Shown here piece by piece: positions 47,125 to 63,272 of a DNA stretch of 64,000 nt. Below the pieces are notes generated by a model. The model saw nothing but the letters and a program-made list of their open reading frames with translations. It searched no databases and was not told the DNA's origin. How positions within the stretch are numbered: the stretch's first letter is position 1; each line of letters begins with the position of its first letter. The stretch spans positions 1,324,769 through 1,388,768 of the forward strand of contig OZ244779.1 of the NCBI GenBank assembly GCA_965219575.1. Direction: 5' to 3'. The translations under genes and the position numbers were made by a program. This DNA is from Candidatus Oxydemutatoraceae bacterium (GTDB lineage: Bacteria; Pseudomonadota; Gammaproteobacteria; Poriferisulfidales; Oxydemutatoraceae).

Positions 47125-47132
47125 AATTAAAT

Positions 47133-48728
47133 ATGTTTTTAATAAGCCAGAGGTTCCTTACCTTACTGGTAGTATTGCCTGCCACCGCACTGATTGCTTC
47201 ATTTGTGGTGCCGGATATAGAGGTATGGCAACATTTAATAGATACTAATCTGCTCGATTACATTGCGAACTCGTTACTGCTCTGTATCGGTGTTGCGATA
47301 GTCTGTTTTGCCATCGGCACCGCAGGTGCTTGCTTATGCGTGATGTGTCGCTTTCCCGGGCAGCGTTTTTTATCGTGGGCGATGATATTGCCGTTGGCTT
47401 TTCCGCCTTATATCGTGGCATACACTTATACCGGTATACTCGACTACGGTGGCTGGTTTAATACTTGGTGGCACTTGGGTTTGGGTTTTCCCGCACCGCC
47501 TATACGCTCTTTGACCGGGGCTATTTTGGTAATCGGTTTCGTATTGTATCCCTATGTTTATTTGCTTGTTTATACGATACTCGTCTCGCAATCCAGAAAT
47601 CTGATCGACGCGGCGCGCCTATGCGGCTTAAACGCAAAACAAATTTTTTTGCGCTTGATATTGCCGATGATACGCCCGGCGGCAATCGCCGGCATTGCAA
47701 TCGTAATAATGGAGTCTTTGGCGAATTATGCAACGGTGCAGTATTTCGGCGTGCAAACATTGAGCGTCGGCATATTCAAGGTATGGTTGGGATTGGGTAG
47801 TCTCACCGGTGCTGCACAGTTGTCGTTAATTATACTGGTGTTTACCGCATTGGTAGTCTCCATAGAAAAAAGTGCAAGAAAGCGTATTTCTTACTATAAT
47901 CAAGGATGCCATCTGCCGTTGCGTGCAATCTATCCTCTGCGCGGCACCCAAATCGTCGTTGCCTGGCTGATTTGCGGATTGCCCATTGCGTTGGGTTTTC
48001 TGATTCCGTTGCTACAACTTATCGTATGGGCTTATCGCTACGGTACCGAAAGATTTGACATCGGTTATTTGCATCTAATCTTCAATTCGGTGACTTTAGG
48101 CTTAAGCGCAGCTTTGATCGTAGTGTTCATTGCGACGATTATGGCGTACGGTCAGCGTCTACATTCATCGTCCAAGTGGCAGTGGCTCGATAAGCTGGCA
48201 ACATCGGGTTATGCGATACCCGGCATAGTAATTGGTATCGGAGTGTTGATTGTAAATAGCACGATAGAAGGTTTGGTTAATAAGACTTTACTTTCTTTTG
48301 ATTTTGCCTCCTGGGGTTTATTTTTGAGCGGCACGATAGTTGCATTATTGTTTGCTTATACCGTACGTTTTATGACTTTAGGTTATAACACCATTGCAAG
48401 TAGCCTGACAAAAATATCACCTAATATAGACTATGCGGCGAGTTCGTGCGGGGCGAATAAACTGAAAGCACTGCGTTTGATTCATGTTCCTTTGATACGC
48501 TCGGGATTATTGAGCGCAGCGTTGCTGATATTTGCGGACGTGGTTAAGGAATTGCCGGCAACATTGGTACTGAGGCCTTTTGAGTTCAATACTCTCGCTA
48601 TACGTACCTACGAATTGGCTTCAACCGAGCGTATCAACGATATTGCGATTCCTTCTCTTAGTATCGTCGCTATCAGCTTGCTTTCGATTATATTGGTGGC
48701 ACAACGTATTGCGCCGTATAAAAAATGA
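47133..48728 (+). CDS. Fe(III) ABC transporter permease
   Basis: LPLAFPPYIVAY, YPYVYL, KELPATLVLRPF; ORF-track N-extension comes from the repeat. Confidence 0.9.
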   Translation: MFLISQRFLTLLVVLPATALIASFVVPDIEVWQHLIDTNLLDYIANSLLLCIGVAIVCFAIGTAGACLCVMCRFPGQRFLSWAMILPLAFPPYIVAYTYTGILDYGGWFNTWWHLGLGFPAPPIRSLTGAILVIGFVLYPYVYLLVYTILVSQSRNLIDAARLCGLNAKQIFLRLILPMIRPAAIAGIAIVIMESLANYATVQYFGVQTLSVGIFKVWLGLGSLTGAAQLSLIILVFTALVVSIEKSARKRISYYNQGCHLPLRAIYPLRGTQIVVAWLICGLPIALGFLIPLLQLIVWAYRYGTERFDIGYLHLIFNSVTLGLSAALIVVFIATIMAYGQRLHSSSKWQWLDKLATSGYAIPGIVIGIGVLIVNSTIEGLVNKTLLSFDFASWGLFLSGTIVALLFAYTVRFMTLGYNTIASSLTKISPNIDYAASSCGANKLKALRLIHVPLIRSGLLSAALLIFADVVKELPATLVLRPFEFNTLAIRTYELASTERINDIAIPSLSIVAISLLSIILVAQRIAPYKK

Positions 48729-48738
48729 GGTTACGGAG

Positions 48739-49806
48739 ATGTTGGAACTACAAAACCTAAGCGTTGCAATCGACGAGCAGACGATCGTTAAGAACGCTTC
48801 TTTGAATATTGAAACCGGAAAAATAGGATGTTTGCTCGGACCTAGCGGTAGCGGTAAGAGCACTTTACTCAGATGTATCGCAGGCTTTCATCGTGCGTTA
48901 ACGGGTTGTGTTTATTTAGAAAATAATTTGATAGAAAGCCCGAGGCAGCGAGTTGCCGTGGAAGCTCGGCGTATCGGTGTTATGTTCCAAGACTATGCGT
49001 TGTTTCCACATCTCACGGTTGAAGAGAATATCGGCTTCGGTATTCATTCTATGGGACGGCGCGAATATCAAGTGCGCCTCAAGCGTATGCTCAACCTAAC
49101 CGAGCTCGGTGTTTATTCGGACTGCTACCCCAACGAATTATCGGGCGGACAACAACAACGCGTCGCATTGGCACGAGCACTCGCACCATTACCCAAACTA
49201 CTATTGTTGGACGAACCTTTTTCCAATATAGACAGTCAACTCAAGCTACAAATGGTACAGGAAATGAGGGAACTATTGATCGACATGAATATCACCACAC
49301 TGATGGTAAGCCACGACCAAAGTGAATCGCTGGCGATGTCGGATAATTTAGGCTTGATGCTCGAGGGGCGGATATTGCAGTGGAGCAAGACTTACGATTT
49401 TTATCATCGTCCCATATCTCGCCAAGTTGCAACCTTTATAGGAATGGGGACTATGCTGCGCGGCACGCTCACCGAAAATAAAACCATCAAAACCGCACTC
49501 GGTGAATTACTCCCTACACCGGACACCTTGCTTCCGCAAGGCAGAGAGGTCGATGTGCTGATTCGTCCCGACGATATAATCCACGACGACGACAGCGACT
49601 TCCAAGCGACGATCAAAAAAAAGGAATTCAGAGGCGCACAGTTTCTTTATTTACTGCATTTGAGCAACGGCGATCATGTTCAATGCTTCGCTCCCAGCCA
49701 TCACGATCATAGCATCGGCGAACAAATCGGCATCCGTGTAGATATGGAGCATGTGGTGTGCTTTCCCGTCAACGAACCGCCGATTGAGCCTGTACGGGCG
49801 GGATAG
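48739..49806 (+). CDS. Fe(III) ABC transporter ATPase
   Basis: [33 protein letters not shown]. Confidence 0.92.
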   Translation: MLELQNLSVAIDEQTIVKNASLNIETGKIGCLLGPSGSGKSTLLRCIAGFHRALTGCVYLENNLIESPRQRVAVEARRIGVMFQDYALFPHLTVEENIGFGIHSMGRREYQVRLKRMLNLTELGVYSDCYPNELSGGQQQRVALARALAPLPKLLLLDEPFSNIDSQLKLQMVQEMRELLIDMNITTLMVSHDQSESLAMSDNLGLMLEGRILQWSKTYDFYHRPISRQVATFIGMGTMLRGTLTENKTIKTALGELLPTPDTLLPQGREVDVLIRPDDIIHDDDSDFQATIKKKEFRGAQFLYLLHLSNGDHVQCFAPSHHDHSIGEQIGIRVDMEHVVCFPVNEPPIEPVRAG

Positions 49807-49840
49807 AGCCGCCGATTGAGCCGGTAGCTCAGTCTAAGTA

Positions 49841-49931
49841 GAGCCTGTTAACTATTTTGTGTAACTTCGTTTTCCTCAATATCAAATCTGCCTTTGTATT
49901 CAATAGCTAATCGGTTCATCGCCGGTGATCA
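49841..49931 (-). mobile_element. IS256-like right-end remnant
   Basis: Minus strand encodes PAMNRLAIEYKGRFDIEENEVTQNS* with end TTACACAAAATAGTTAACAGGCTC. Confidence 0.55.
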
Positions 49932-50041
49932 CTTTGCATTGCAGGTGATAGGTCATTACTGCGATGCTCTAAAAGGTTTTGATGCTTGCAGTGCCTTTTC
50001 CCTTTGGTTTTAATGTCTATTTTCATTGTGGTATACTTTCG

Positions 50042-50141
50042 GTGTGTGGCAAGCACCCGAAGGGTGAAATTAGGTTAGGCTTTAAGTTCATTCGGCTACT
50101 ACAAACACCTAACTGTTTGCGAGACTCCGCTTGCCACGCAC
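50042..50141 (+). ncRNA. Candidate ~100-nt structured RNA (multi-stem junction)
   Basis: 13-bp closing stem GTGTGTGGCAAGC/GCTTGCCACGCAC; inner ACCC-GAA-GGGT and GTTAGG/CCTAAC; TGnTATACT at 50029-50037. Confidence 0.55.
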
Positions 50142-50142
50142 T

Positions 50143-50683
50143 CTAGTTATTTTCATAAAGCAAAGTTCCGGTTCGTTGATTATCTACATAATTTTCTTGC
50201 ACTGGTATAGCATTCCAAAACAAACTGCCGTTTATATTCTCCCGAGCGATTATCAGCATATTCTTTCTCCCTCTAAATAATTTAATAAACCGACGACGGA
50301 AACTACCGTCATCATATCTAGCCAACCAAATTTCATTCGGGTCAGTCAATGTAGGGAGAATAAAATTAGCATACCTTTCTCGAGTAGCTAGCCGTTTCCC
50401 GGATATATACCTTAATCCTCTCTTGCTAACGACAACCGGTTCTAGTGGTGTGCGAATGTTGCGAAAGTCGTTTTTTTTACCAAACACAGCTTTCATGATT
50501 TGAGCGTAAGCGAGGTCACTTGAATCTGCTTTAGGTGAGCTTAGGAGGCTCTGCAAACGCAGAGTCCGGAAGTTCTTTTACGCCGGGTAATCCGTAGTCT
50601 CCATATTCTTTTTGATCGGATTCTATGATGGCGACACCTTTACCGCAACCGCCGACTTGATCGGACAATGCGCCGACACATAC
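50143..50683 (-). pseudogene. PBECR2-like nuclease-fold domain (MuF/phage-type C-terminal domain), frameshifted and 5'-truncated
   Basis: RERYANFILPTLTDPNEIW..RRRFIKLF; upstream frame ..EPPKL joins PKADS by a frameshift near 50535; cut by the MITE at 50684. Confidence 0.6.
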
Positions 50684-50841
50684 GGGCTGTTGAAAAAGTA
50701 CTGTTTTTGCAAAATTGTAACCGCTTGCGCCCCTCAATTACGCAAAACACCTGTAGGGGCGGACTAGCATGATGCCTTATTAAAAATCAAGTCATTTTAT
50801 TCATTTTTTATCTCCGTTTTATATTTTTCCTGAGTATCGAT

Positions 50842-51828
50842 TTAGGACGCAGATGCGCAACAATAATTCGGGTCAAACGGCTTCCTGTATCTGAGTATCC
50901 CGTAAATAATACGTGCCAGCTTATGGGCGCAAGCAACAATAATCTGCTTTTTAGTTAACTCCGGACGCCGCCGACTTAATTGGTCGGCAAAGGCACGGAT
51001 GATTGGGTTATGAACCCGTGCCGAGAGTGCCGCCATAAACAGCAGGGTGCGCAGTTCGGCATCGCCCATTTTAGAGATATGCGCCTTCGCCTCGTAGTTG
51101 CCGGACTGCCGGTGCCTTGGGTTGAGACCGACATAGACTGCGAATTGCTCTGCGTTATCAAATGTCTTATCATTGAAAACAGCACACAGGGCAATCGCTG
51201 TCTGAGTGCCGATGCCGGTAATGGAACACAGCAACTGCTTAAGCTCTGCGAGTTGCTCGTCTTGAGCGATAATTTGCTCCATTTCGGCATCCTGCTTAGC
51301 AATCTGTTTGTCAAAGTATCTCAGGTTCTCAGCTGCTCGTTTTTTTTGCCTTGCATCGCATAAGGTTTTCATACAATTACTTAACCCGGTATGATCTTTG
51401 ACTAATTGCCTGCGCACTTTTCGTGCATCTCTCAAGGCGAGTGCAGTCGGCGACGGCATTTGCCAATCTTTACCGTCAACAGCGAATGCGAACAGTGCGA
51501 TGAGCCGCGCATCATCGCGATCGGTTTTATTGTGCATACCAAGCGATTGGCGGAAGCCGGCAACCTGCGCCGGTCTGACAATCCTAATCGGATGTTGAGC
51601 CAGATAGCCGGCTTTGCACACGGCGAACTCAAAACCGCCGGTGGCTTCAACACAGATGCGACAGTGCGGTGCGCGGTGTTTGCTAGCCCAAGCTAACAGC
51701 TGCTTAATACCCTTGGCATCATTGCTGAATTGTGCCTCGGCAAAACTATTATCGGTGAATAATAGAGCGGCCTCTAAAGTGTCTTTAGAGACATCCACGC
51801 CGATTATGGCAGGGTGTTTGTTTTCCAT
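50842..51828 (-). CDS. IS110 recombinase (DEDD RuvC-like plus Tnp domain)
   Basis: GVDVSK, VEATG, KTDRDDA, RQSG; start MENK after GGAGG. Confidence 0.95.
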   Translation of the reverse strand: MENKHPAIIGVDVSKDTLEAALLFTDNSFAEAQFSNDAKGIKQLLAWASKHRAPHCRICVEATGGFEFAVCKAGYLAQHPIRIVRPAQVAGFRQSLGMHNKTDRDDARLIALFAFAVDGKDWQMPSPTALALRDARKVRRQLVKDHTGLSNCMKTLCDARQKKRAAENLRYFDKQIAKQDAEMEQIIAQDEQLAELKQLLCSITGIGTQTAIALCAVFNDKTFDNAEQFAVYVGLNPRHRQSGNYEAKAHISKMGDAELRTLLFMAALSARVHNPIIRAFADQLSRRRPELTKKQIIVACAHKLARIIYGILRYRKPFDPNYCCASAS

Positions 51829-51883
51829 AATAATATCCTCCATTATGGTTGTTCAGTGAATAAAATACTCGGTAGCCAGTTCA

Positions 51884-52082
51884 GGAAAGTATGACTACGC
51901 CGCCCACACAGGTAAATACGAGATCTAAAGTCTCAAGCTGCCTTCCGAGCTCTATAGTCATAGCGCCGGAGGAGTGCTTTTCATGCTAACAGGCTTTAAT
52001 GCCTCGTCCGTCCTGCGGCGTGTCTCCTCCGACTTCCTAGGTACTGCAACTACCTAAGCATTTATCTTATATAAATAAGCTA
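51884..52082 (-). ncRNA. Predicted bridge RNA, copy 1
   Basis: Two stem-internal-loop-hairpin units whose loops match the target REP and the donor junction (see findings); exact ends inferred. Confidence 0.85.
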
Positions 52083-52369
52083 GGGTTTAATATACCTGTC
52101 CGCCCGAAACGTATCATGTTTGCACGATTAACGCGTTCACCCATTAATACTATGGAAACCATTATTTGTTGGCGCAAGCGGTTACGGCCGTGCAGAACGG
52201 TATTTTAGGGCAGACATCAAAATTGCCGATTGACCTACCGGCTCAATCGGCGGCTTTATACTGCCCCTACGAATCGGTGGTTATTATAAATTCATGGCGC
52301 AAGCGGTTACGGTTGCACGCTGACGATACTTTTTCAACAGCCCCAAATAACCATCATACACCACCGAAA

Positions 52370-53554
52370 TTAAGCCAATACCCGCATGTATTCTTCGGGA
52401 CTGATAATACCCAGCTGTAACAATTCCATACCCGCTTGCCGTAGGGTTGTGGTGCAGTGTTTTTTTAATTGTATATCGGCAGTCGCCGGCGAATCGGTGT
52501 AATTCGATATGAGGTGACCGAGTTCGTCGTCTACTACCAGCATTTCGTATACGGCTTGTCTACCGGAGAAACCGGTATAACGACAGTGTTCGCATCCGCG
52601 ACCGTGATATAACTGCGCCGGCCCTTTGCCGTTGACTTTGGACTGCCAAGCTGTCGGTATCGTGCGGCAGGGTGCTTTGCAATGCAGACATATTTTTCTA
52701 AGTAGACGCTGACAGACGATAAGATTGACGGCAGCACCTATCAAATAAGCGGGTAATCCGATATTAATAAGTCGTGCGATAGTGCCGGTGATATTTCGAG
52801 TGTGCAAGGTGCTCATGACGAGATGCCCGGTTAGTGCGGCTTTGATCGCGATATCGGCAGTTTCGAAGTCGCGCATTTCACCGACCAAAATAACCTCCGG
52901 ATCTTGGCGTAAAAAAGCTCGCAGTATATCGGCAAAATTCAGACCGATTGCTTCTTTGACTTCGACCTGATTGATACCGTCGATTTTGTATTCAACCGGG
53001 TCTTCGGCAGTAAGAATGTTGATACCGGACCGATTGATTGCGTGTATGCCGGCATATAAGGTTGTCGTTTTGCCGCTGCCGGTAGGTCCGGTGACCAGTA
53101 GCATACCTTGATTACTTTTTAGTGCTTGTTGCATCAAACTTAGGTGTTGTTCGTCCATACCGAGCGCATCCAAGCGCGGCGTAAAGCCGCCGCTGTCGAG
53201 CAACCGCAATACGACACACTCGCCGGATATGGACGGCACGATAGAAACACGAATATCAACGGAAGTATTATCGTCGTTAAAGGAAAAGCGACCGTCTTGA
53301 GGCAACCTACGTTCGGCAATATCCAGTCCGGCGAGCAGTTTGATTCTCGATACGATACCGGCGTACTGCACTTGCATAAAATCGTCGGTTGTCACTTCTT
53401 GTAGCACGCCGTCCAGCCTATAGCGCAATCGGCTACCGGCGTCGTATCGCGCTATGTGTATATCGCTGGCGTTATAGCTTAGAGCTTGGCGGAGCATCGC
53501 TTCGACGAAGTAGATGACCTCGGTATATCCGTCTAGTGTCAGATGCTTATTCAT
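52370..53554 (-). CDS. GspE/PilB-family assembly ATPase (short N-terminus)
   Basis: ASDIH, RLPQDGR, GPTGSGKTT, LRQDPEVILVGEMRD, CxxC..CxxC. Confidence 0.92.
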   Translation of the reverse strand: MNKHLTLDGYTEVIYFVEAMLRQALSYNASDIHIARYDAGSRLRYRLDGVLQEVTTDDFMQVQYAGIVSRIKLLAGLDIAERRLPQDGRFSFNDDNTSVDIRVSIVPSISGECVVLRLLDSGGFTPRLDALGMDEQHLSLMQQALKSNQGMLLVTGPTGSGKTTTLYAGIHAINRSGINILTAEDPVEYKIDGINQVEVKEAIGLNFADILRAFLRQDPEVILVGEMRDFETADIAIKAALTGHLVMSTLHTRNITGTIARLINIGLPAYLIGAAVNLIVCQRLLRKICLHCKAPCRTIPTAWQSKVNGKGPAQLYHGRGCEHCRYTGFSGRQAVYEMLVVDDELGHLISNYTDSPATADIQLKKHCTTTLRQAGMELLQLGIISPEEYMRVLA

Positions 53555-54996
53555 ACGATTTGCGGTGCGATGAAGACCATCAATTCCTTGACATCGCCTT
53601 CGCGTCTTCTATATCGGAACCAATCACCGATAAACGGCAGGTGGGTGATAAAAGGCATGCCTTCGAATGCTCGCACTTGTTGTTTGAGATAGATGCCGCC
53701 GATGACGACCACATCGCCGCTACGTACCAACAAACGACTCGTTAGCTCGCGACGGGTGATCGGCGGGTTTTGTAGCCGAGTATCTACGGTATCTTTGTTG
53801 ATTGCCAAATCCAGCATTAGATGTTGTTCGTTGACGATACTCGGGGTGACCGCGAGTTTGAGTCCCGCTTGTTTGAATTCGGTCTGTGTGCCGCTGTCGG
53901 AAACCGTTTGATAGGGCACTTCGCTGCCTTCGAATATCATTGCCGATTGATTATCCAATGTGAATATCTTGGGGTTCGATATGAGGCGACTCTTGCCGGC
54001 TTTTTCCAGGGCACTCAGTTCTACGCGTATACGCGCGCTACCGAAAGTCAAACCCAACCCGCCGCTAGCTCCGGCAACCGGCACATTAAGATAAGGTCCG
54101 TTAATGTTGTCGGTGCTGAAAATACCGTCTCTGTGTCTGCCCAAACGCGCGCCCAATGCGCGAGTGAAATCCTCGCCGGCTTCTACGATAAACGCCTCTA
54201 TCATCACTTGCCGTTGCGGCACATCTATCGTGCCTATCAGCGAGGCAGCCAGTTCTATGGCTTGTCGGTCACCCTGCACAATCAAAGAATGACTGCTTTT
54301 ATCGCCGACCACCGAGCTTTTGATTGCCGGTGCATTGCCGGTGTTGCTCTGTTTTTGTTGCTCACCCAATAGAGATTTTAATAGCGTTGCCATTTTCTCC
54401 GCATCGGTATAACGCAGTTTGAATAGTTCAACATTATGTGCTTTTGCAGATTGCCCGTTCATTCGTGTGCTTGTATTTTTTTGCTTGCCGGTGTTTTTAT
54501 AAATCTGAATTAGTTTTTTAGCTGCGTGTTCGTCGACACTCAGTCCCTGCAATTCGGCAATGCTATGTAGCGCATCACGCCAATCGATCCGATTGAGACT
54601 GTAATTGACGGTGCCGTTTATATCGGGTGCGATCAAAATATTATGACCGCTTAGATCGGACAACATAGACGCAAAGACGCGCAGCGGTACGTCGACCAAC
54701 CTCAGACTCAGCATCATGGGTTCTGTTGCGGCAGGTTCATGTGACGATAAAGGTTCGGATAATAACGGGATACGCCGTTGTCGATAGGGTATTACGGGAG
54801 TTCGTATCGGTGGCGACGGTGGAGCAGTGGTTTGATGCCGATCGATAAAGGCTTGTTGATCTATCAAAGGTTTATCCGAAGGTGTTACCGGCTTTTCGAA
54901 GTAAGCGCAAGCCGATAGTAGCGTGGTAGCGATTACCGAGAAACAAAATATACAAGCGATTTTCATTACATCGTTCATTGCAGTAGCGGTAGCCAA
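53551..54996 (-). CDS. Secretin, PilQ-like (lipoprotein)
   Basis: Lipobox LLSAC; IDVPQRQVMIEAFIVE, LSALE..ISNPKIFTLDN, ELMVFIAPQI. Confidence 0.88.
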   Translation of the reverse strand: MATATAMNDVMKIACIFCFSVIATTLLSACAYFEKPVTPSDKPLIDQQAFIDRHQTTAPPSPPIRTPVIPYRQRRIPLLSEPLSSHEPAATEPMMLSLRLVDVPLRVFASMLSDLSGHNILIAPDINGTVNYSLNRIDWRDALHSIAELQGLSVDEHAAKKLIQIYKNTGKQKNTSTRMNGQSAKAHNVELFKLRYTDAEKMATLLKSLLGEQQKQSNTGNAPAIKSSVVGDKSSHSLIVQGDRQAIELAASLIGTIDVPQRQVMIEAFIVEAGEDFTRALGARLGRHRDGIFSTDNINGPYLNVPVAGASGGLGLTFGSARIRVELSALEKAGKSRLISNPKIFTLDNQSAMIFEGSEVPYQTVSDSGTQTEFKQAGLKLAVTPSIVNEQHLMLDLAINKDTVDTRLQNPPITRRELTSRLLVRSGDVVVIGGIYLKQQVRAFEGMPFITHLPFIGDWFRYRRREGDVKELMVFIAPQIV

Positions 54997-55331
54997 GACA
55001 AAGTGTTCTGTATCTCTATCTGAATACCTTTGGTTGTGATTTGTCGAATGATCGCTTGCTCTTGTCCTAACTGCGCGCGCACTTGCAACCTATGCCAAGT
55101 ATTGCGTGGCGAATAAACAACTGCTACCGCGTTGTCCGCCGCCACGATAACGCCGTGCACAACATACTGTGCTACCGGATAAGCCGTGAGTGGATCGATT
55201 TGCCGTTGTTGCGGTTTTTCCGGCTGCGAGAGTTTTTCGCGAGTCTGAAAATGATTGTCGCTTATAATATCTTTCGTGTCTTCCGCACTTGCAAACGGAG
55301 CGGTCAGACAGAGTAGGCATAGCAACCACAT
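54975..55331 (-). CDS. PilP-like protein
   Basis: Signal peptide MWLLCLLCLTAPFASA; DPLTAYPV..G..A.V; position between pilO-like and secretin genes. Confidence 0.6.
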   Translation of the reverse strand: MWLLCLLCLTAPFASAEDTKDIISDNHFQTREKLSQPEKPQQRQIDPLTAYPVAQYVVHGVIVAADNAVAVVYSPRNTWHRLQVRAQLGQEQAIIRQITTKGIQIEIQNTLSWLPLLQ

Positions 55332-55339
55332 AACCACCG

Positions 55340-55366
55340 GTAGGGGCGGACTAACATGTCCGCCCT
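55340..55366. repeat. REP palindrome (empty IS110-type target)
   Basis: GTAGGGGCGGACTAACATGTCCGCCC. Confidence 0.85.
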
Positions 55367-55463
55367 TAAACAACCATCTCTGCACAAACAACGTGTTTAT
55401 CCATCGATTCATGGTGACTGACGATGGAATTATCTTATATCGTAATCTTACAAACATAATTCC

Positions 55464-56126
55464 TCATAAAGTAACTTCTTTGGGTTGATATACGCTGAGA
55501 TCAACGACGATATCGAGTTGTAGTTCCTCTTTCGTCGATAGATATTCACGCTCCATTTGCGTCAAAGGGCTGAGCTCCCAGAGTGCTTTTTTGAATCTAA
55601 GATAATCGCTGAATTGCCCTCGCAGATGCCACGAATAGTGAGTTGCCGTGAACTGTTCGGTGAATTGAGAGGATATTCGGTGGTCGTTTATGGTGTTCGT
55701 TGTCACGACTATCAGCCGATGATCGTGCGCCATGCGATGTAGATCTATCGCGTTGTGTTGTAGCGTTGCATTATGCAGGGAAACCAACAAAGGATCGGTC
55801 TCCAGTTCGGTGAATGTTGCATGCGCGCCTCGGTACATCTGATCTAGTTGTGCAACTTGCCGCTCCAATAAAGGGATGGATGCAAGCTGTGCCCTACTCG
55901 TCGCATAGTTCACGGTTGTCGGATATACAAAGACCACAAAACAAATACAAGGAACAATCAGCGAGAGTACGAGAGAAGCATAAACGATAAATCGATACAA
56001 ATCGTTCGGGTTGTACAAGCGATCGTCGGAACGATTGAAATATCTATAGACGCGATATGCGAGTGTACTAAGCCTATCGCTGTTGCCGATGTTATCGTTT
56101 ATAGCATTTTCGGTCTGCGCGGTCAT
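55464..56126 (-). CDS. PilO-like membrane protein
   Basis: TM helix, coiled coil, LRGQFSDYLRF; gene order. Confidence 0.55.
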   Translation of the reverse strand: MTAQTENAINDNIGNSDRLSTLAYRVYRYFNRSDDRLYNPNDLYRFIVYASLVLSLIVPCICFVVFVYPTTVNYATSRAQLASIPLLERQVAQLDQMYRGAHATFTELETDPLLVSLHNATLQHNAIDLHRMAHDHRLIVVTTNTINDHRISSQFTEQFTATHYSWHLRGQFSDYLRFKKALWELSPLTQMEREYLSTKEELQLDIVVDLSVYQPKEVTL

Positions 56127-57604
56127 TCGTCTATTCCGTTATTGAGCTTGCAGCTAAGCGTGAATTGCATTGCGCCGGAATGTTCTTGTATCGTTTGACT
56201 GCTGTCTATAGCGACCTCGTGAATCATATCCAGTTGCTCCAGTTGTTCTACAAAAACGATGAGTTGTCCATAATCCCCTGCTACGGCGGTTATCAAACAG
56301 CTACTTTGCCATCGGCAATCTATACTCTCTATCTTGACCGACGAAGGGATGACGGCACCCAAATGCGCCCATAGAGCCATTGCCGAATGGTGTTGCGTTG
56401 ATAAAAATTGCATCTGTGCCTGCATCTGTCGTCGCCGTTCGGTGCGTTGCCTTAGAGCATCGAGTTTGTTTTTATATTCGTCTTGCTGTGTCGATAATTG
56501 TGTTTGATAGAGGCGTTGAGCATGCTGTGTGGCATCCAAGGCGACTATATGCTGATAATAAAAGAATAGTATTGCCGAGATAATCGTTGAAAATATCCAG
56601 CAAACGGTACTCTTGTAATACTCATTGCGGTGATTGTGGATGAAGTTGGCTTGGGTTTTGAAAGTTGCTGCATCCGATGCCAGCCAATACGCCAGCGCAA
56701 TCGGTGCCGACATCGTGGCGCAATTGTCTTTTGTTTGTGACGACGGCTTTATGTTCTTAGCGATATCCAAAGGCTTTAATACAATATCGTTCAATGACGA
56801 TTCTAGTCGTGTAGCCGTTTGCCGATTCAGATTGCCGATTAGATATAGGGTATGGTTGTCGCCTTGTTCGCTACGCAAGCGTTCGTGCAAAGACTCCGAT
56901 AAATGTTGCAAAGCGATCGCTGTTTGTTTTTCGTTGCAAGCTACATTAGTATCGGACGATGCGCATAGATTTTTATGGTCGTGATCGGAGACTATCGTCC
57001 GATGCGAGAATACATTGACTCCCAGGTGTGCTAGATACGCCTCGTATTCGTTGACAACCAATAGACGACGGGCGGGTTGCTTGTGTTGTACGCCGTAATA
57101 TACCAACGAGGAAAGCGTCAATACATTAAGCGATAGCCGGGTGCGCGCAAATACCGCCTTATAGAAAGCAAGTGCGGTATTGGGTACCGCCATCAGGTAG
57201 ATCGATAAACGGTATCGCTGTTTATCGTGTATCGTCGTCAATTGGGTATAACTATAATCGTCGTTTCCGACTCCCAAGTGTTTGTGCCAGAAATGTCTGC
57301 TCGATAACATGCGCGACAATGCTCTCCGTCCTATCAAAGGCAACGCAACACATTTTGATTTAGCACGCGCAGCCGGTAATGTCGCAATAGCAAAGCCCAA
57401 CTGTATGTTGTTTTGTACACATAAATCGTTCAGTGCATCGCCACATTCTTTAGGATGTTCGTACAAATCGTCGAAATCGCGATAAGGCAATCGCACCGCA
57501 CCGGTTGCCGTTAAATGCAATACACCGTTGCGGCGAGATAGGCTCGCAACACGCAATACCGACGGAGATATTTCTACCCCGATACTGTTTCTATGGATAT
57601 TCAT
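56123..57604 (-). CDS. PilM-PilN-like fusion protein
   Basis: N-terminal IGVEISPSVLRV (PilM-like), then TM helix, coiled coil and LGAVIPSSVKIESI (PilN-like). Confidence 0.6.
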   Translation of the reverse strand: MNIHRNSIGVEISPSVLRVASLSRRNGVLHLTATGAVRLPYRDFDDLYEHPKECGDALNDLCVQNNIQLGFAIATLPAARAKSKCVALPLIGRRALSRMLSSRHFWHKHLGVGNDDYSYTQLTTIHDKQRYRLSIYLMAVPNTALAFYKAVFARTRLSLNVLTLSSLVYYGVQHKQPARRLLVVNEYEAYLAHLGVNVFSHRTIVSDHDHKNLCASSDTNVACNEKQTAIALQHLSESLHERLRSEQGDNHTLYLIGNLNRQTATRLESSLNDIVLKPLDIAKNIKPSSQTKDNCATMSAPIALAYWLASDAATFKTQANFIHNHRNEYYKSTVCWIFSTIISAILFFYYQHIVALDATQHAQRLYQTQLSTQQDEYKNKLDALRQRTERRRQMQAQMQFLSTQHHSAMALWAHLGAVIPSSVKIESIDCRWQSSCLITAVAGDYGQLIVFVEQLEQLDMIHEVAIDSSQTIQEHSGAMQFTLSCKLNNGIDE

Positions 57605-57735
57605 AAATCACCTGTATCCAGCATAAAACATCGAATAGGGGCGATGGAGTGCAAACGGATTAAATGCACCAAATAACCGACGAAGTGTATACGAGGTAGG
57701 TAAAATAAGGCTTTCAGCCGAAGTGTTTCGACCGA

Positions 57736-57822
57736 TGGTACCGAGGGTGGGACTCGAACCCACACGGGTTTAACCCCACTGGATTTTGAGTCCAGCGCGT
57801 CTACCTGTTTCGCCACCTCGGC
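57736..57822 (-). tRNA. tRNA-Leu(CAA)
   Basis: GCCGAGG/CCTCGGT-ACCA; anticodon arm CTGGA-CTCAAAA-TCCAG; long variable arm. Confidence 0.96.
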
Positions 57823-57975
57823 AGTAAGGCTACATTATAGACTAATCTATCTTATCCATACGATAGTCCCATACCACTCCTTTGGAGGGGTAGCAGACGA
57901 AGCCTAAAAGACTTTGCATTCATCGATGTATGCAAACCACTTCATATATAATGGTATCTTCTATAGTTTTGTATC

Positions 57976-58968
57976 ATGCCTGTTTCTTCCATCGAAAAAA
58001 TCAACATCAGCACGCCGGCGAGATTACATCTGGGGTTTATAGACTTGCATGGCGGTGTCGGACGCAAATTCGGGAGTGTCGGCATTGCATTGGATACGCC
58101 GAGATTGGAACTTGAGATTGTGCCTGCCGAGTCACTCAATATATACGGTGCGGACACTGTGCGCATCACTCAATTAGTGAAGACTTTTGATGCGCATTAC
58201 AAGGTTGAGAGCCGTTGTAGTATTCATCTAAAGCAGACTATTCCTGTGCATCAAGGACTCGGTTCGGGAACCCAGACGGCGTTGGCGGTAGGGCAAGGCT
58301 TGGCGAGCCTGCATGGTTTGACATTGGCGCATACCGAAATCGCATCCTGTTTGGCGCGCGGTCGGCGTTCGGGTATAGGAATTTATGCTTTTGATCGCGG
58401 GGGTGTTTTGGTTGATGCCGGCGTTAAGGACGACAAGTTACCGACTTTGCTTTTTCATCGTCCTTTTCCGAGCGCATGGCGCATTTTATTGATTATGACT
58501 CGAGGGCAAGATGGTTTGCACGGTGCGGGTGAGCATAACGCATTTGCGCGCTTGCCACAATTTTCTAAATTGTGTGCCGCTGCTTTGAGCCGCACGGTGC
58601 TTATGCAATTAATGCCGGCGGTGGTGGAGCAGGACTTTGCTAGCTTCGCCCAAGCGGTGTACAAATTGCAAGCAACGATGAAGGATTATTTCTCGTCGGT
58701 GGAGGAACAAAAAATATCGCGCTTTAATTCTATGAAACTATTGGAATATTTGGACAAACAGGGTATAAAAGGCATTGGTCAAACCTCGTGGGGGCCGACC
58801 GCTTTTGCGATAACGGAAAATCAGGCACAGGCGGAAGCCTTAAAAGCCGAATTAAAAGATTATATGCGATCTCACGCTACCGAAACCGAGGCTTTCGAAG
58901 ATATGGAGAAAATAGATTTTCTTATCGTCAAAGGAGACAATAAAGGTGCAGTGATCGTTTTAGATTAA
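57976..58968 (+). CDS. mptG: Beta-ribofuranosylaminobenzene 5'-phosphate synthase family (methanopterin biosynthesis)
   Basis: PARLHLGF, HQGLGSGTQ, RGRRSGIG, GQTSWGPT. Confidence 0.88.
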   Translation: MPVSSIEKINISTPARLHLGFIDLHGGVGRKFGSVGIALDTPRLELEIVPAESLNIYGADTVRITQLVKTFDAHYKVESRCSIHLKQTIPVHQGLGSGTQTALAVGQGLASLHGLTLAHTEIASCLARGRRSGIGIYAFDRGGVLVDAGVKDDKLPTLLFHRPFPSAWRILLIMTRGQDGLHGAGEHNAFARLPQFSKLCAAALSRTVLMQLMPAVVEQDFASFAQAVYKLQATMKDYFSSVEEQKISRFNSMKLLEYLDKQGIKGIGQTSWGPTAFAITENQAQAEALKAELKDYMRSHATETEAFEDMEKIDFLIVKGDNKGAVIVLD

Positions 58969-58983
58969 CAACAAACTATAGGA

Positions 58984-59898
58984 ATGACAATGGAAAAACC
59001 TTATATATTACATATGCTGACTTCGGCTCCGAATCTAAGCCCTTTTGATGTCAACATGGCGATGGATGCGGGGTGGGATGCAGTAATTCCATACACTAAT
59101 TTAGATCTCTCGGATGTGCAGGCACTCGTGCAAGATGCAATTTTTTCGAGGGGTCCATCGGGTGTCAAACGTACCGGTTTATTCATAGGCGGGCGGGATA
59201 TGACGCTCGCATTACAGATGCTGGAGTCGGCACACAAGGCAATGGTGCCGCCCTTTGAAGTCTCGGCGATGGCCGACCCCAGTGGTGCATTTACCACCGC
59301 TGCCGGCATGATTGCTGCGGTCGGCGGTAAACTCAAGCGCATACACCGAAGCGACTGGCAAGGGTGTCGTGCAATGGTGCTGGGTGGTACCGGTCCGGTC
59401 GGCATGGTTGCTGCGATACTGGCAACCGAATTAGGTGCGCAAGTAACGCTGATGAGCCGTCAACGTTCCAAAGCCGAAGGTATCGTCGAGAATTGCCGCA
59501 AGCTGTGCAAAAGCAACGCCGAGCAACTGCATCCGGCGGGCAACGACGAGAAAGCAAGTTTATTGGATCAAACAGAGGTAATACTGGCAACTGCAGCCGC
59601 CGGCATCCAAATGATGGACGCAGACGAAATAGCGTCGGCAAGCGCGCTTAAGGTTGCTGCCGATGTGAATGCGGTACCGCCATCCGGTATTCATAGCCTC
59701 GATGTTATGCACGACGGCAATCCTTTGCAAGGTTCCAAATCGGGTGCGGTGGGAATCGGTGCGTTGGCAATCGGAAACATCAAGTATCAAGCCCAGCACC
59801 GCTTACTGAAGCAAATGTACGAAACGGATAAGCCGGTCTATCTACACTACGAACACGCGTGCGAATCGGCTCAAGATTATATGGATGAACGAGCGTAG
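58984..59898 (+). CDS. mtdB: Methylene-H4MPT dehydrogenase
   Basis: SPFDVNMAMDAG, QDAIFSRGP, DPSGAFTTAA, DVNAVPPSG. Confidence 0.9.
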   Translation: MTMEKPYILHMLTSAPNLSPFDVNMAMDAGWDAVIPYTNLDLSDVQALVQDAIFSRGPSGVKRTGLFIGGRDMTLALQMLESAHKAMVPPFEVSAMADPSGAFTTAAGMIAAVGGKLKRIHRSDWQGCRAMVLGGTGPVGMVAAILATELGAQVTLMSRQRSKAEGIVENCRKLCKSNAEQLHPAGNDEKASLLDQTEVILATAAAGIQMMDADEIASASALKVAADVNAVPPSGIHSLDVMHDGNPLQGSKSGAVGIGALAIGNIKYQAQHRLLKQMYETDKPVYLHYEHACESAQDYMDERA

Positions 59899-60143
59899 CA
59901 CTGCCGGTTAAGCCGAAAGAGGGGGTAGGGGGCTGTTGAAAATGTATTTCATACATCGTTGGCGTACCATTCCCCTCCAGAGGAGGGGAATGTACCGGCA
60001 CTATGCTCTTGCAGATATGACGGGGCTGTTGAAAAAATATCCACGAACCGTAGGGGCGGACTAGCATGATGCCTTATTAAAAATCAAGTCGTTTTATTCG
60101 TTTTTTATCTCCTTTTGTGAGTATTGATTTAGGACACAGATGC

Positions 60144-61118
60144 TCAACAATAATTCGTGTCAAACGGTTGCTTGTGCGTGGTGACCCCGTAAATAATACG
60201 CGTGAGCTTATGAGCGCAAGCAACAATAATCTGCTTTTTAGTTAACTCCGGACGCCGGCGACTTAATTGGTCGGCAAATGTACGGATGGTCGGGTTATGA
60301 ACCCGTGCCGAGAGTGCTGCCATAAATAGGAGGTTGCGCAAGTCGGCATTGCCCTGTTTAGAGATGGGCGTAGGCGAGTTGCAGTTGCCGGATTGCTTGT
60401 GCTTGGGCGTGATGCCGATATAGGCGGCGAGTTGCTTTGGATGGCGAAACGTATTATCATCCAGTACTGCACACAGGGCAGCCGCAGTTTGAGTTCCGAT
60501 TCCAGGAATGGAACACAGCAACTGGTGAAGCTGTGTGAGGTGCTCGTCTTGAGCGATGATTTTGTCCATTGAGGCATTAATCTTATCGATCTGCTTCTCA
60601 TGGTTCTTCAGGCTAGTGGCTGCCACCTTTTTTTGCTTCGCATCGCGCAGAGTTTTAGCGCAATTGCTTAACATCGTACGACACTTGACTAATTCCCTGC
60701 GCCATTTCAGTGCGTCGCGCAAGGCTTGTACAGCCGGTGAGGGTTTTTGCCAATCGTCTTCAGGCGGGATAGCAAATACGAAGCGTGCGATGGTACGCGC
60801 ATCAACGCGATCGGTTTTACTGCGTATGCCGAGCGAGTCGCGGAATCTAGAGATCAGCACCGGTGCTGCCACGGTGATTGGATGCCCGGCATCATAGCCG
60901 GCCATGCACAGGTCTAGTTCAAGACCGCCGGTCGCCTCAACGCAGATGCGACACTGCTGTGCGCGGTGTTTGCTCGCCCAAGCTAACAACTGCTTGATGC
61001 CTTGGGCATCACTACTAAATTGTTGCTCGGCAAAACTATTATCGGTGAATAATAGAGCCGCCTCTAAAGTGTCTTTAGAGACATCAACGCCAATCGTGAC
61101 GGGTTGTTTGTTTTCCAT
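60144..61118 (-). CDS. IS110 recombinase
   Basis: GVDVSK, VEATG, KTDRVDA, KQSG. Confidence 0.95.
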   Translation of the reverse strand: MENKQPVTIGVDVSKDTLEAALLFTDNSFAEQQFSSDAQGIKQLLAWASKHRAQQCRICVEATGGLELDLCMAGYDAGHPITVAAPVLISRFRDSLGIRSKTDRVDARTIARFVFAIPPEDDWQKPSPAVQALRDALKWRRELVKCRTMLSNCAKTLRDAKQKKVAATSLKNHEKQIDKINASMDKIIAQDEHLTQLHQLLCSIPGIGTQTAAALCAVLDDNTFRHPKQLAAYIGITPKHKQSGNCNSPTPISKQGNADLRNLLFMAALSARVHNPTIRTFADQLSRRRPELTKKQIIVACAHKLTRIIYGVTTHKQPFDTNYC

Positions 61119-61178
61119 AATAAATTACTCCATAAGGGTTGGTTAATGAATGAAATACTAGGTATCAAACACAGTTTA

Positions 61179-61377
61179 GGAAAGTATGACTACGCCGCCC
61201 ACACAGGTAAATACGAGATCTAAAGTCTCAAGCTGCCTTCCGAGCTCTATAGTCATAGCGCCGGAGGAGTGCTTTTCATGCTAACAGGCTTTAATGCCTC
61301 GTCCGTCCTGCGGCGTGTCTCCTCCGACTTCCTAGGTACTGCAACTACCTAAGCATTTATCTTATATAAATAAGCTA
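61179..61377 (-). ncRNA. Predicted bridge RNA, copy 2
   Basis: Identical by eye to 51884-52082. Confidence 0.85.
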
Positions 61378-61922
61378 GGGTTTAATATACCTGTCCGCCC
61401 GTAGCGCGTTGGTCGGCACGATTTATACATTCATCCATCCGATTTATGGAAACCAAAACCATCCGGCGCAAGCGGTTCCAGCCGTGCAGAACGGTACTTT
61501 AGGGCAGACATCAGAGTTGCCGATTGACCTACCGGTTCAATCGGCGGCTTTATACTGCCCCTACAGGTGGTTTGCAAATGTTCATGGCGCAAAGCGGTTG
61601 CAATTGTGAGAAACAGCACTTTTTCAACAGCCTGATGATGCGACTACCCCGTCAGGCTGAATAGAACCGCCGATTGAACCGGTAGGTCAATCGGCGTGAC
61701 TTTGTTCAGAACCTCAACATGCCTGCTAAACGCGTGCATTGCAAAATGCATAGGCCACCCCTCCGAAGGAGGGGAATGGTACGCTCTTACATTTCGTGGT
61801 TTACATCGCCAGCGATATGATTTCGTTGATTTATGCTATGATAATGTTTTTCAATTTTAGGATTACGCAGAGGCATCGGCTTACTGCAATAACCCGTTAT
61901 ATCTAAGCAATAGGAGAATATT

Positions 61923-63272
61923 ATGTCTAAGATAATTAGTAAATTGTTTCCCGCACTATTTTTGGTAGTGGGATTAGTGTCCGTCTCTCAAGCGGACGAA
62001 ACCTGTATGTCGCCGTATATGGCAAAGATAGTCGGGCAGGAAGACTATGTCTATGTCTGGACTTTAGGTGTTGAAGGTTTAGGAGACGAACAAGACAAGC
62101 TTGTTACCATAGATGTCAACCCCTCATCCGATACTTATGGAAAAGTCGTTCATACTTTATCGGTGGGTGGGCGCAACGAAGCACACCATTCCGGTCTAAG
62201 TGACGACCGCCGTTATTTGTGGGCCGGTGGACTGGACAGCAACAAGGTTTTCATATTCGATGTGCATAGTAACCCACGCCAACCGCGTTTGCATAAAGTA
62301 ATCAGTGATTTTGTTTCTAAAACAGACGGTTTGGTCGGGCCGCATACTTTCTATGCACTACCGGGACGGATGATGATTACCGCTTTATCCAATAATAAAG
62401 ATCACGGCGGACGTACCGGCCTGGCAGAATACACCAACGAGGGCGAGTATATTACAACGCACTGGAAGCCTACCGATGGTGATTTGCGCGGTGCGAAGAA
62501 GACCGGACAATTTGCCGACGGCTACGGCTATGATCTACGCGTGTTGCCTCGCCGCAACATGATGTTGACTTCGTCTTTTACCGGCTGGTCCAACTACATG
62601 ATGGACTTCGGCAAAATGCTCAAAGATCCGGAAGCGATGAAACGTTTCGGCAACACGATGGTGTTGTGGGACATGCACAGCCGTAAACCTAGAAAGGTAT
62701 TCGATGTCCCCGGAGCACCGTTGGAAATACGTTGTGCTTGGCAGCCGAACCATAATTATTGCTTCACGACCACCGCATTGACTTCCAAAATTTGGTTGGT
62801 CTACGAAGACATAGAGAGCGGTGAATGGAATGCTCAAGCGGTTGCCGACATCGGCAATCCGGCAGACGTGCCTTTGCCGGTAGACATTTCTATCACTTCG
62901 GACGACAGCGGTCTTTGGGTGCAGACTTTCATGGACGGCAAGACTCGTTATTTTGATATTACCGATCCGTTCAATCCTAAGCAAGTCTATGAGCATGTTA
63001 TCGGCTCGCAAGTTAATATGATTTCACAAAGTTGGGACGGCAAGCGGGCTTATTTCACATCGTCTCTATTGGGAATGTGGGATAAGACCGGAGAGGACGA
63101 CGAGCAATTCTTCAAAGCCTTCGTTTGGGACGGAGACGAGTTGGATCAGCAGTTCATGATTGATTTCTATGCAGAAAAGCTGGGTAGAGCGCATCAAATG
63201 CGCTTCGGTGCTTATTCCTTATACGGTGCCGCACCTTCGGATAGCGAAACCAAGCTAACATACGATCAATAA
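61923..63272 (+). CDS. mtoX: Methanethiol oxidase (SBP56 family), periplasmic
   Basis: Signal peptide then DETCMSPY; EAHH, GPHT, SSFTGW, TSSLL..WD. Confidence 0.88.
   Translation: MSKIISKLFPALFLVVGLVSVSQADETCMSPYMAKIVGQEDYVYVWTLGVEGLGDEQDKLVTIDVNPSSDTYGKVVHTLSVGGRNEAHHSGLSDDRRYLWAGGLDSNKVFIFDVHSNPRQPRLHKVISDFVSKTDGLVGPHTFYALPGRMMITALSNNKDHGGRTGLAEYTNEGEYITTHWKPTDGDLRGAKKTGQFADGYGYDLRVLPRRNMMLTSSFTGWSNYMMDFGKMLKDPEAMKRFGNTMVLWDMHSRKPRKVFDVPGAPLEIRCAWQPNHNYCFTTTALTSKIWLVYEDIESGEWNAQAVADIGNPADVPLPVDISITSDDSGLWVQTFMDGKTRYFDITDPFNPKQVYEHVIGSQVNMISQSWDGKRAYFTSSLLGMWDKTGEDDEQFFKAFVWDGDELDQQFMIDFYAEKLGRAHQMRFGAYSLYGAAPSDSETKLTYDQ

Follow-up and report, generated by a model that had tools for sequence, protein, structure and literature searches.

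Excerpts of the published accounts of IS621 from E. coli (PDB 8wt6; PMC11208160, PMC11208158) describe a two-domain recombinase with a set of catalytic residues, an RNA gene in the left end of the element, upstream of the recombinase, and two guide loops in that RNA, each of which reads the left and right halves of a DNA site around a 2-nt core. A handshake lies beside each right guide, its first base pairing with the non-cognate DNA in both loops, and a promoter is divided over the joined ends of the element. The elements described here resemble IS621 in all of these features, the divided promoter being predicted from sequence. They differ in having the core CA, where IS621 has CT, and a target in the loop of a REP-like hairpin, and the proteins, known here from sequence alone, are related to that of IS621 only at E about 1e-45. 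The ISCro4 transposase (PDB 9t56) is the best solved relative of one of our two proteins (B, below), yet it too is distant in sequence.

Two further comparisons are relevant to the choice of target and to the pairing of RNA with protein. In Pseudomonas putida, the IS110-family elements ISPpu10 and ISPpu9 are described, in the available text of two sources, as having all copies at one position of one repeated intergenic palindrome or stem-loop (bioRxiv 10.64898/2026.03.19.712850; PMC12288879). This likeness to our elements is one of description only, and both the host and the repeat are different. ISKpn4 and ISPa25, members of the IS1111 group, have transposases that are 46% identical, closely matching guide RNAs and the same site (PMC11187229, in part), a discordance between RNA and protein like that of the hybrid element reported below. 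They differ from it in belonging to the IS1111 group, where the RNA is downstream, and the accessible portion of that paper gives no account of the discordance as a recent recombination with a mapped breakpoint.

Two lineages of an IS621-like element

The window, the whole stretch of 64,000 nucleotides analysed here, contains two loci, A1w and B1w, that are IS621-like bridge-RNA insertion sequences of the IS110 family; a single element has split into the co-resident lineages A and B. The genome, one contig of 2.37 Mb in which 7 copies are resolved, carries four A-type copies (A1w and A2-A4; mutual identity 97.5-99.9%) and three B-type copies (B1w, B2 and B3), and the coding sequences of the two lineages are 77% identical as DNA and 68% identical as protein. 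Element ends were set by comparing the 7 occupied sites with uninterrupted copies of the repeat, giving a size of about 1327 bp and the core CA at both loci. CA is the 2-nt core common to the target and the joined ends, and the comparison of occupied with empty sites revealed neither terminal inverted repeats nor a target duplication. The noncoding ends measure 270 nt on the left, upstream of the gene, and 72 nt on the right. Membership of the IS1111 group was considered and rejected, given the long noncoding region upstream of the gene and the absence of sub-terminal inverted repeats among the repeat pairs.

The target is the loop of a REP-like hairpin, GGGCGGA-CA-TGCTA-GTCCGCCC, which is found uninterrupted at at least 209 places in the genome. 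Insertion is between the hairpin arms in 7/7 copies here and in 12/12 full copies of three congeners.

50770..52098, minus strand: A1w, complete A-type element, about 1327 bp plus the shared CA core (occupied versus uninterrupted sites)
60067..61393, minus strand: B1w, hybrid element with an A-type left end and a B-type spacer, gene and right end (A/B-distinguishing sites; segment trees)
61394..61400, minus strand: REP hairpin split by B1w, left half, the left target (occupied/empty site comparison, guide matching)
60050..60066, minus strand: REP hairpin split by B1w, right half, with the rest of the loop and the 3' arm (occupied/empty sites, guides)
50842..51828, minus strand: A1w recombinase gene, 328 aa (PF01548 and PF02371; NF033542; IS621 chain 8wt6)
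60144..61118, minus strand: B1w recombinase gene, 324 aa, intact (PF01548 and PF02371; NF033542; ISCro4 chain 9t56)

Both proteins match PF01548 and PF02371 (N-terminal DEDD RuvC-like and C-terminal Tnp domains; E 1e-20 to 1e-24) as well as NF033542, the NCBIfam model 'IS110 family RNA-guided transposase' (222 bits for A1w and 216 bits for B1w; cut-off 140). Matches to the IS621 and ISCro4 chains span E 1e-43 to 2e-45. The A1w protein aligns with IS621 chain 8wt6 at E 1.9e-45, with the catalytic D, E, D, D and S in register, and the B1w protein aligns with ISCro4 chain 9t56 over residues 8-321 at E 1.6e-45. The motifs GvD, CvEATG, KTDrxDAR and qSG coincide with the same residues of IS621 in the A protein and of ISCro4 in the B protein; the roles of the DEDD/Ser catalytic residues are taken from an excerpt of PMC11208158. 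The most likely start of the A reading frame is 51828 (MENK...) rather than 51843, and in the B lineage the upstream ATG meets a stop immediately. The B1w protein shares 312-314 of its 324 residues with B2 and B3, at a pN/pS of about 0.2-0.27.

The original prediction placed the closest similarity between the proteins in the N-terminal ~60 aa and a second block ending in CAHKL, and this was borne out: A3 and B1w share 51/60 of the first 60 residues and 37/40 of codons 261-300, against 221/323 residues for A1w and B1w overall. Its reading of these blocks as a mosaic produced by A-B exchange has been set aside, as the same uneven conservation was found in all 8 lineage pairs compared, with the N-terminal and C-terminal blocks the best conserved even in pairs that are only 66% identical overall. 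The pattern looks like uneven constraint rather than exchange.

The shared left end and its bridge RNA

The left ends of A1w and B1w are identical over an exact run of 216 nt (52098..51883 and 61393..61178) that starts with the element's own first nucleotide, the C of its CA core, and the identity extends a further 8 nt outward into the REP flank. Most of this had been anticipated: 51884-52098 and 61179-61393, noticed by eye as the same, agree at 215/215 positions; the opposite ends, said to share 22 bp, are identical for 24 nt inward from the core (the 22 bp plus the 2-nt core) and for a further 17 nt of flank; and the spacers from the RNA to the start codon do differ, with 42/59 positions identical. 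All 216 positions are the same across A1-A4 and B1w. The native B copies have a different version, B2 and B3 differing from A at 16-17 of 218 positions (92% alike), and B1w is identical to these two at 201-202/218.

51883..52098, minus strand: A1w left end, with bridge-RNA gene, both guide loops and right-donor sequence (identity, two-loop fold, guide matches)
61178..61393, minus strand: B1w left end, A-type, with bridge-RNA gene (216/216 versus all four A copies)
61178..61201, minus strand: crossover interval, bounded by 61202, the last A-specific site, and 61177, the first B-specific one (distinguishing sites)

The two lineages are distinguished by 240 sites, 237 of which could be scored in B1w, the other 3 being neither A nor B. 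B1w is A-type at the first 15 scored sites and B-type thereafter, apart from 9 A-like sites; 6 of these are probably ancestral, since the sister species' B copies also carry them, and 3 are lone sites. A recombination test, as had been proposed for these copies, returned one switch (15/15 match to A, P about 6e-18; maximum chi-square 142; 0/5000 permutations), and in segment trees the left end of B1w is identical to A while the rest of the element falls inside the B clade with 100/100 support. The crossover interval of 24 nt is one of the two longest identity runs between A-type and native B left ends. An A-type left end in B1w, where B2 and B3 have the 92% version, supports the earlier proposal of recombination between IS110 lineages or exchange of guide modules. 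The first 216 nt, the A-type part, comprise the left terminus and the complete RNA gene, with all four guides and the handshake positions.

The predicted RNA is roughly 200 nt long and lies upstream of the recombinase, one loop reading the target and the other the element's joined ends. Its consensus fold has two internal loops, each with an invariant closing stem and a hairpin cap, and variation among 9 distinct left ends clusters at guide positions. Covariation in the stems is almost nil (1 pair) because the stems are invariant. A search of 49500-62500 with Rfam 15 at E up to 1 matched only a tRNA, the bridge RNA having no Rfam family.

61300..61308, minus strand: left target guide, element positions 86-94 (GGACGGACG versus left flank GGGCGGACA)
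61275..61285, minus strand: right target guide, positions 109-117, and two handshake positions (reverse complement CATGCTA equals core plus right flank)
61231..61239, minus strand: left donor guide, positions 155-163 (AAGGCAGCU versus right-end AAGGCATCA)
61202..61211, minus strand: right donor guide, positions 183-190, and two handshake positions (complementary to the left end's first 6 nt)
60082..60087, minus strand: TTGATT in the right end, -35 of a predicted promoter completed only on the circle junction (junction built from coordinates)
61384..61389, minus strand: TATATT in the left end, -10 of the predicted junction promoter (same junction)

The left target guide shifts together with its flank in lineages D and E, and B2 and B3 carry CATGCAA in both the right target guide and the flank. 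Across 19 full copies, the right target guide and flank match exactly in 14, by G-T/U-G wobble only in 3, and with one true mismatch in 2. On the donor side, position 4 of the right-donor sequence (G or A) agrees with its guide in 21/21 copies from 5 lineages, and the left-donor sequence AAGGCATCA is invariant in 19/19 full copies. These copies are kin (5 lineages), so the independent guide changes among them are few. When right and left ends are joined, in a sequence built from coordinates, they form TTGATT-17 nt-TATATT, which matches the consensus promoter at 9/12 positions, and the integrated junction of B1w has no promoter site at or above threshold. The RNA is presumably expressed.

Origin of the hybrid

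Considered as a whole, B1w is very probably an A/B hybrid of an IS621-like element made by homologous recombination. A single switch within 24 nt of identity is the signature of homologous (RecA-type) recombination, not of transposition chemistry, and we infer that an A element and a B element recombined within this shared run to give B1w.

58984..59898, plus strand: ORF of 304 aa that flanks the hybrid on its B-type side and bounds the missing interval at one edge (synteny; no NCBIfam name)
61923..63272, plus strand: methanethiol oxidase gene on the A-type side, the other edge (NF052453, 766 bits, cut-off 650; synteny)

These two genes are separated by 2 kb here and by 21, 39 and 44 kb in the congeners G003, G001 and G004. 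The interval is homologous among the three congeners, and only REP-sized matches to it were found in this genome. The position of B1w at the site of this lost 21-44 kb interval suggests a deletion by A x B crossover: two directly oriented copies may have flanked the interval, and an unequal crossover between them would have deleted it and left the hybrid. For this preferred route we see an even balance of probability. An insertion sequence at a deletion is less telling because gene order breaks are common nearby; in each of the three congeners the flanks of A1w map 240 kb or more from each other, and another break lies near 57915. The target hairpin was not seen in the corresponding intergenic regions of G003, and searches for a parental arrangement, a reciprocal product or another copy of the hybrid found none. 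The crossover deletion would add to the cases in which insertion sequences have reshaped a small genome, two giant genes probably having been removed here.

A simple crossover predicts a right flank derived from the insertion of the B parent, and the flank of B1w, CATGCTA, fits the A-type guide instead. This points to a hybrid that transposed to the site or to conversion of an A element already there, but only slightly, since CATGCTA occurs at 34/209 empty sites and 2/19 copies tolerate a mismatch.

The strongest competitor to the unequal crossover, though we lean against it, is non-crossover gene conversion of an A or B element already at the site, with the interval lost in an unrelated event. 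The left end of A1w, the nearest A copy (9.3 kb distant and oriented alike), is identical, the right flank fits an insertion made with A-type RNA, as would follow had an A element come first, and the region has frequent gene-order breaks without hybrids. Conversion must also account for the single switch within the element, which would require the second edge of the tract to coincide with the terminus or lie outside it, in the REP flank, and for a hybrid that sits exactly at a lineage-specific deletion when gene order is conserved around 4 of the 6 other copies (A3, A4, B3 and probably B2), which are simple insertions.

It is also possible, if unlikely, that the hybrid arose elsewhere and then transposed here with its own A-type RNA and B-type enzyme, a history compatible with the other routes. 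The right flank corresponds to the A-type guide, the reading frame of B1w is intact with its catalytic columns conserved, and the scaffold stems of the A-type and native B RNAs are identical; the hybrid may be active. Excerpts of two papers report that diverged transposases of the IS1111 group have very similar guide RNAs (PMC11187229) and that IS621 functions with RNA supplied in trans (PMC11208160). Transposition is not needed, however, to explain the position at a deletion junction, and the single hybrid copy gives no sign of spread or movement since its formation.

An assembly or polishing artefact, in which reads from the four A copies overwrote a true B-type left end, is highly improbable. 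The junction does rest on one assembly, because public contigs from four runs end within the repeat and 61177-61202 is bridged by none of those listed, but that assembly is a single 2.37 Mb contig resolving 7 copies in which B2 and B3 retain their own left ends. The switch is a single clean point in an identity run, a flank base at a distance of 1.3 kb fits the A-type guide, and a separate assembly of the sister species contains a hybrid of the same design. Site-specific, RNA-guided exchange by the element's own recombinase seems scarcely tenable: the crossover interval contains GGGCGG, resembling the left target, but the junction lies about 200 nt inside the element, away from the terminus, with no CA core and matching guides there, and the interval is merely one of the two longest shared runs. 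That there was no exchange, the identity reflecting strong selection on the RNA or convergence, can be dismissed almost outright, for although left ends are far better conserved than genes in all lineages (85-97% versus 66-78% identity), the 16-17 differences of B2 and B3 from A already contradict it, the sister species' B copies match B2/B3 at 12 of the 15 A-specific sites, and convergence at 15/15 sites, loop and linker positions included, is not credible.

Exchange of guide-RNA ends

B1w is a natural example of the exchange of a guide-RNA end by ordinary recombination and not a new kind of system; the known workings of the family are unchanged by it. The hybrid is self-consistent, as the swap carried the right-donor sequence along with its guide and no lineage has a different left-donor sequence. 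Swaps would be tolerated because the right-donor sequence and guide are linked in the first 190 nt and the left-donor sequence does not vary. It is plausible, as the earlier proposal suggested, that one RNA could serve both the A and B enzymes in trans, since A-type and native B RNAs have the same scaffold stems and differ in guides, loops and linkers.

A broader and more doubtful reading is that the left end is an exchangeable cassette among IS110 recombinases of ~68% identity, such that swaps recur (two sister genomes have independent hybrids), hybrids stay mobile and each swap re-aims the element. If this were true, the B enzyme would work with an A-type RNA, and retargeting would be driven by recombination, beyond point mutation of guides alone. 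Among the at least 209 empty sites, the hairpin loop reads CATGCAA at 40, CATGCTA at 34 and CATGTTA at 55, and the swap in B1w would have exchanged the 40 CATGCAA loops for the 34 CATGCTA loops as its targets, with the 55 CATGTTA loops added by wobble. For the engineering of bridge recombinases, the bench question is how much divergence between recombinase and RNA scaffold is tolerated; in B1w an RNA is joined in cis to an enzyme that is 68% identical to its usual partner, and B2 and B3 are native-RNA controls.

The hybrid in the sister genome G003, copy L017, is an independent one of the same design as B1w. It is B-type at 34 of the first 35 distinguishing sites and C-type at the remaining 233, and it is also located at a gene-order breakpoint.

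The two elements, their bridge RNA and their target

The two IS621-like elements of the window, A1w and B1w, are members of the known IS110-family bridge-RNA group and include an instructive natural hybrid.

50770-52098, minus strand: A1w, with the shared 216-nt run upstream of the gene
60067-61393, minus strand: B1w, with the shared 216-nt run upstream of the gene

Both proteins carry PF01548 and PF02371 (Pfam) and pass the curated threshold of NCBIfam NF033542 ("IS110 family RNA-guided transposase"). They align with the IS621 and ISCro4 transposases of known structure at E 1e-43 to 2e-45 and conserve the D, E, D, D and Ser columns, whose catalytic role is named in the structure paper (PMC11208158). 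The genome is one 2.37 Mb contig with seven copies, every one on the minus strand: four A-type (A1-A4, 97.5-99.9% alike) and three B-type (B1w, B2 and B3, 95.9-98.6% alike). The two types are 79.5-81.2% alike over the whole element and 77% over the gene, and their proteins agree at 221 of 323 residues. B1w has an intact reading frame, which shows purifying selection when compared with B2 and B3. A 137-aa ORF beside A1w (50143-50556, minus strand) had no NCBIfam match.

The original prediction that the proteins are mosaics produced by exchange between A and B was not supported. The N-terminal 60 residues and codons 261-300 are best conserved in all eight lineage pairs compared, including pairs 66% identical overall, and we read the block pattern as uneven constraint. 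Synonymous divergence at codons 261-300, which offer few sites, is 0.07-0.29, versus 0.38 overall.

The fold of the left end has two internal loops; a stem closes each loop and a small hairpin caps it, the same layout as in the IS621 bridge RNA (PMC11208160). Nine different left ends, drawn from this genome and from three congeners (G001, G003 and G004), have invariant stems, and their variation lies in the loops, to which the published IS621 rule was applied, assigning four guides. Among copies that are kin from five lineages, so that the counts represent few independent changes, the right target guide agrees exactly with the core and right flank in 14 of 19 full copies, differs by wobble only in three and has one true mismatch in two; in 21/21 copies the right donor guide pairs with left-end base 4 (G or A), and 19/19 have the identical left donor sequence in their right end. 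In lineages D and E a changed left flank goes with a changed left target guide, and the first of the handshake bases next to each right guide pairs with the other DNA, fitting the handshake rule. No Rfam family was found for the left-end RNA (49500-62500, E up to 1), the sole match being a tRNA with a long variable arm (57739-57822, minus strand; RF00005, 59.9 bits) that adjoins a gene-order break near 57915. A candidate sigma-70-like promoter, TTGATT-17-TATATT, is present only once the right and left ends are joined; no such promoter was found at the same threshold at the integrated B1w junction, and at that of A1w the flank supplies ATGATA, apparently by chance.

Comparison of the seven occupied sites with uninterrupted repeat copies places the insertion point inside a hairpin loop, GGGCGGA-CA-TGCTA-GTCCGCCC, the two-base core CA being common to the target and the joined ends. 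Genome-wide, 209 uninterrupted hairpins agree exactly with this one in left half, core and 3' arm, and these were classed according to the bases that follow the core on its right.

Loop variants among the 209 uninterrupted hairpins
CATGTTA: 55
CATGCAA: 40
CATGCCA: 34
CATGCTA: 34
CATATAA: 22
CATACAA: 16
other variants: 8

A composite REP-like repeat family occupies intergenic DNA around both elements and genome-wide, with more than 200 hairpin units that have one common left arm, core and right arm, and with recurring extra modules such as CCGCCGATTGAGCCGGTAGGTCAATCGGC.

REP-like repeat stretches in the window
49765-49834
50683-50769
52099-52345
59899-60066
61394-61824

Composition of B1w

Identity by eye between 51884-52098 and 61179-61393 was confirmed at 215/215 positions; the actual run is 216 nt (52098..51883 and 61393..61178), and it extends 8 nt into the flank. 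The left end of B1w matches that of A1-A4 at 216/216 positions, whereas B2 and B3 differ at 16-17 of 218. The four A copies are divided from B2 and B3 by 240 sites, and at three of these B1w is of neither type. Over the 237 that could be scored, B1w is A-type at sites 1-15 and B-type thereafter except at nine scattered sites. The maximum chi-square, 142, falls at a split after site 15 and was reached in 0 of 5000 permutations; the chance of all first 15 sites being A-type is about 6e-18.

Six of the nine scattered A-like sites, including 61055, 61052 and 61026, match B copies of the sister species and are probably old B states since lost by B2 and B3; the other three are lone sites. Patchy repair at 61055, 61052 and 61026 was dropped as an explanation because this agreement makes B2 and B3 the derived copies. 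With the scattered sites discounted, a single switch is left, between 61202 and 61177; it lies within a run of 24 identical nt, which belongs to the two longest that A-type and native B left ends have in common. In trees, positions 1-216 of B1w do not differ from the A copies, and the remainder falls in the B clade at 100/100. Recombination between the lineages, as predicted, is thus supported for the RNA end by the 15-site block, the single switch and the discordant segment trees. A second mosaic was weighed for A2, whose right end, like that of B, is without 10 nt; lineage E is likewise without them, so the 10 nt are more likely an insertion in A1, A3 and A4.

Differences between A-type and native B RNA
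left terminus
one base of the right target guide, with one handshake base
two bases of the right donor guide, with one handshake base
loops and linkers
a G-U pair changed to A-U in a cap stem

None of these differences breaks a stem. The swap carries the right-donor sequence and its guide jointly and does not affect the invariant left-donor sequence, so the hybrid, a single copy in this genome, should recognise its own ends, and the predicted change in its preferred target is a single base, CATGCAA becoming CATGCTA. It is plausible that the B enzyme works with an A-type RNA, since IS621 accepts RNA supplied in trans (PMC11208160) and in the IS1111 group closely matching guide RNAs occur with transposases 46% identical (PMC11187229). 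The literature searches listed no report of a mapped natural swap in which one lineage took over the bridge-RNA module of another, and one may exist, for example in supplementary element tables.

Origin of the hybrid junction

The junction lies 200 nt inside the element, in a shared run, which points to homologous recombination; the chemistry of the element itself operates at its ends. The genes flanking B1w, a 304-aa ORF and a methanethiol oxidase gene, are separated by 2 kb here, by 21 kb in G003, by 39 kb in G001 and by 44 kb in G004. The interval between them is homologous among these congeners and has only repeat-sized matches in this genome; because gene identity places G003 nearest to this genome among the three, loss in this genome is the simpler reading. 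In G003 the interval has two giant reading frames, of 3196 aa and at least 3343 aa, and G001 and G004 have several tandem paralogous modules of the first. Of the ORFs in the G003 interval, those of 3196 aa and 287 aa matched no Pfam family.

Giant frames of the G003 interval, by extracted locus
L029:9405-18995
L030:3-10031

A hybrid at a deletion junction is the expected residue of an unequal crossover between two copies that lie in direct orientation and differ in type; given homologous recombination, we judge this route about as likely as not. Against it, the right flank of B1w suits the A-type guide and not the guide of B2 and B3, neither a parental nor a reciprocal form was found, gene-order breaks are frequent nearby, and no target hairpin was seen in the two G003 intergenic regions bordering the interval. 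Non-crossover gene conversion, on the same premise of homologous recombination, is a credible but less probable route. A3, A4 and B3 are plain insertions with gene order conserved, and B2 lies within a cluster of other repeats in collinear context. A1w coincides with a break in gene order that is peculiar to this genome (flanks 47129-49766 and 52370-57848): in G003, G001 and G004 its flanks map 240 kb or more from each other; an exchange between A copies there would leave no hybrid trace.

An assembly artefact behind the hybrid, judged separately from the two routes, is very improbable. Part of 60950-61700 is present in five of eight public runs listed, from two studies, but among contigs from four of the eight (X1, which may be the source sample, X2, X3 and X5) no listed piece crosses 61177-61202, the contigs ending inside the repeat, and those of X2 and X3 give no cover at 61028-61391.

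A second hybrid and other elements in the congeners

One G003 copy, L017 (G003:C1:1998246-1999580), is B-type at 34 of the first 35 distinguishing sites, to about position 399, and C-type at the other 233; it has a B-type left end and about 120 nt of the gene, followed by a C-type remainder. Its site pattern makes it a hybrid built like B1w but independent of it, in an independent assembly. Its flanks lie 630 kb apart in opposite orientation in this genome, marking a rearrangement breakpoint.

Two B-type copies of G003 (L015, G003:C1:297990-300463, and L016, 763826-766299) contain about 1.1 kb of other DNA at the same position (~962-967), and the interrupted form itself seems to have been copied. 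Repeated elements of ~1.1-1.2 kb and 0.75 kb adjoin A2 and B2 (L033:4747-5828, L036:8377-10561); they have several congener matches at 86-98% and are probably other insertion sequences. Lineage E genes are 97-99% identical across two species, with the left end identical in four of five copies (G4_L023/L024, G1_L026-L028), which hints at recent transfer between those two genomes.
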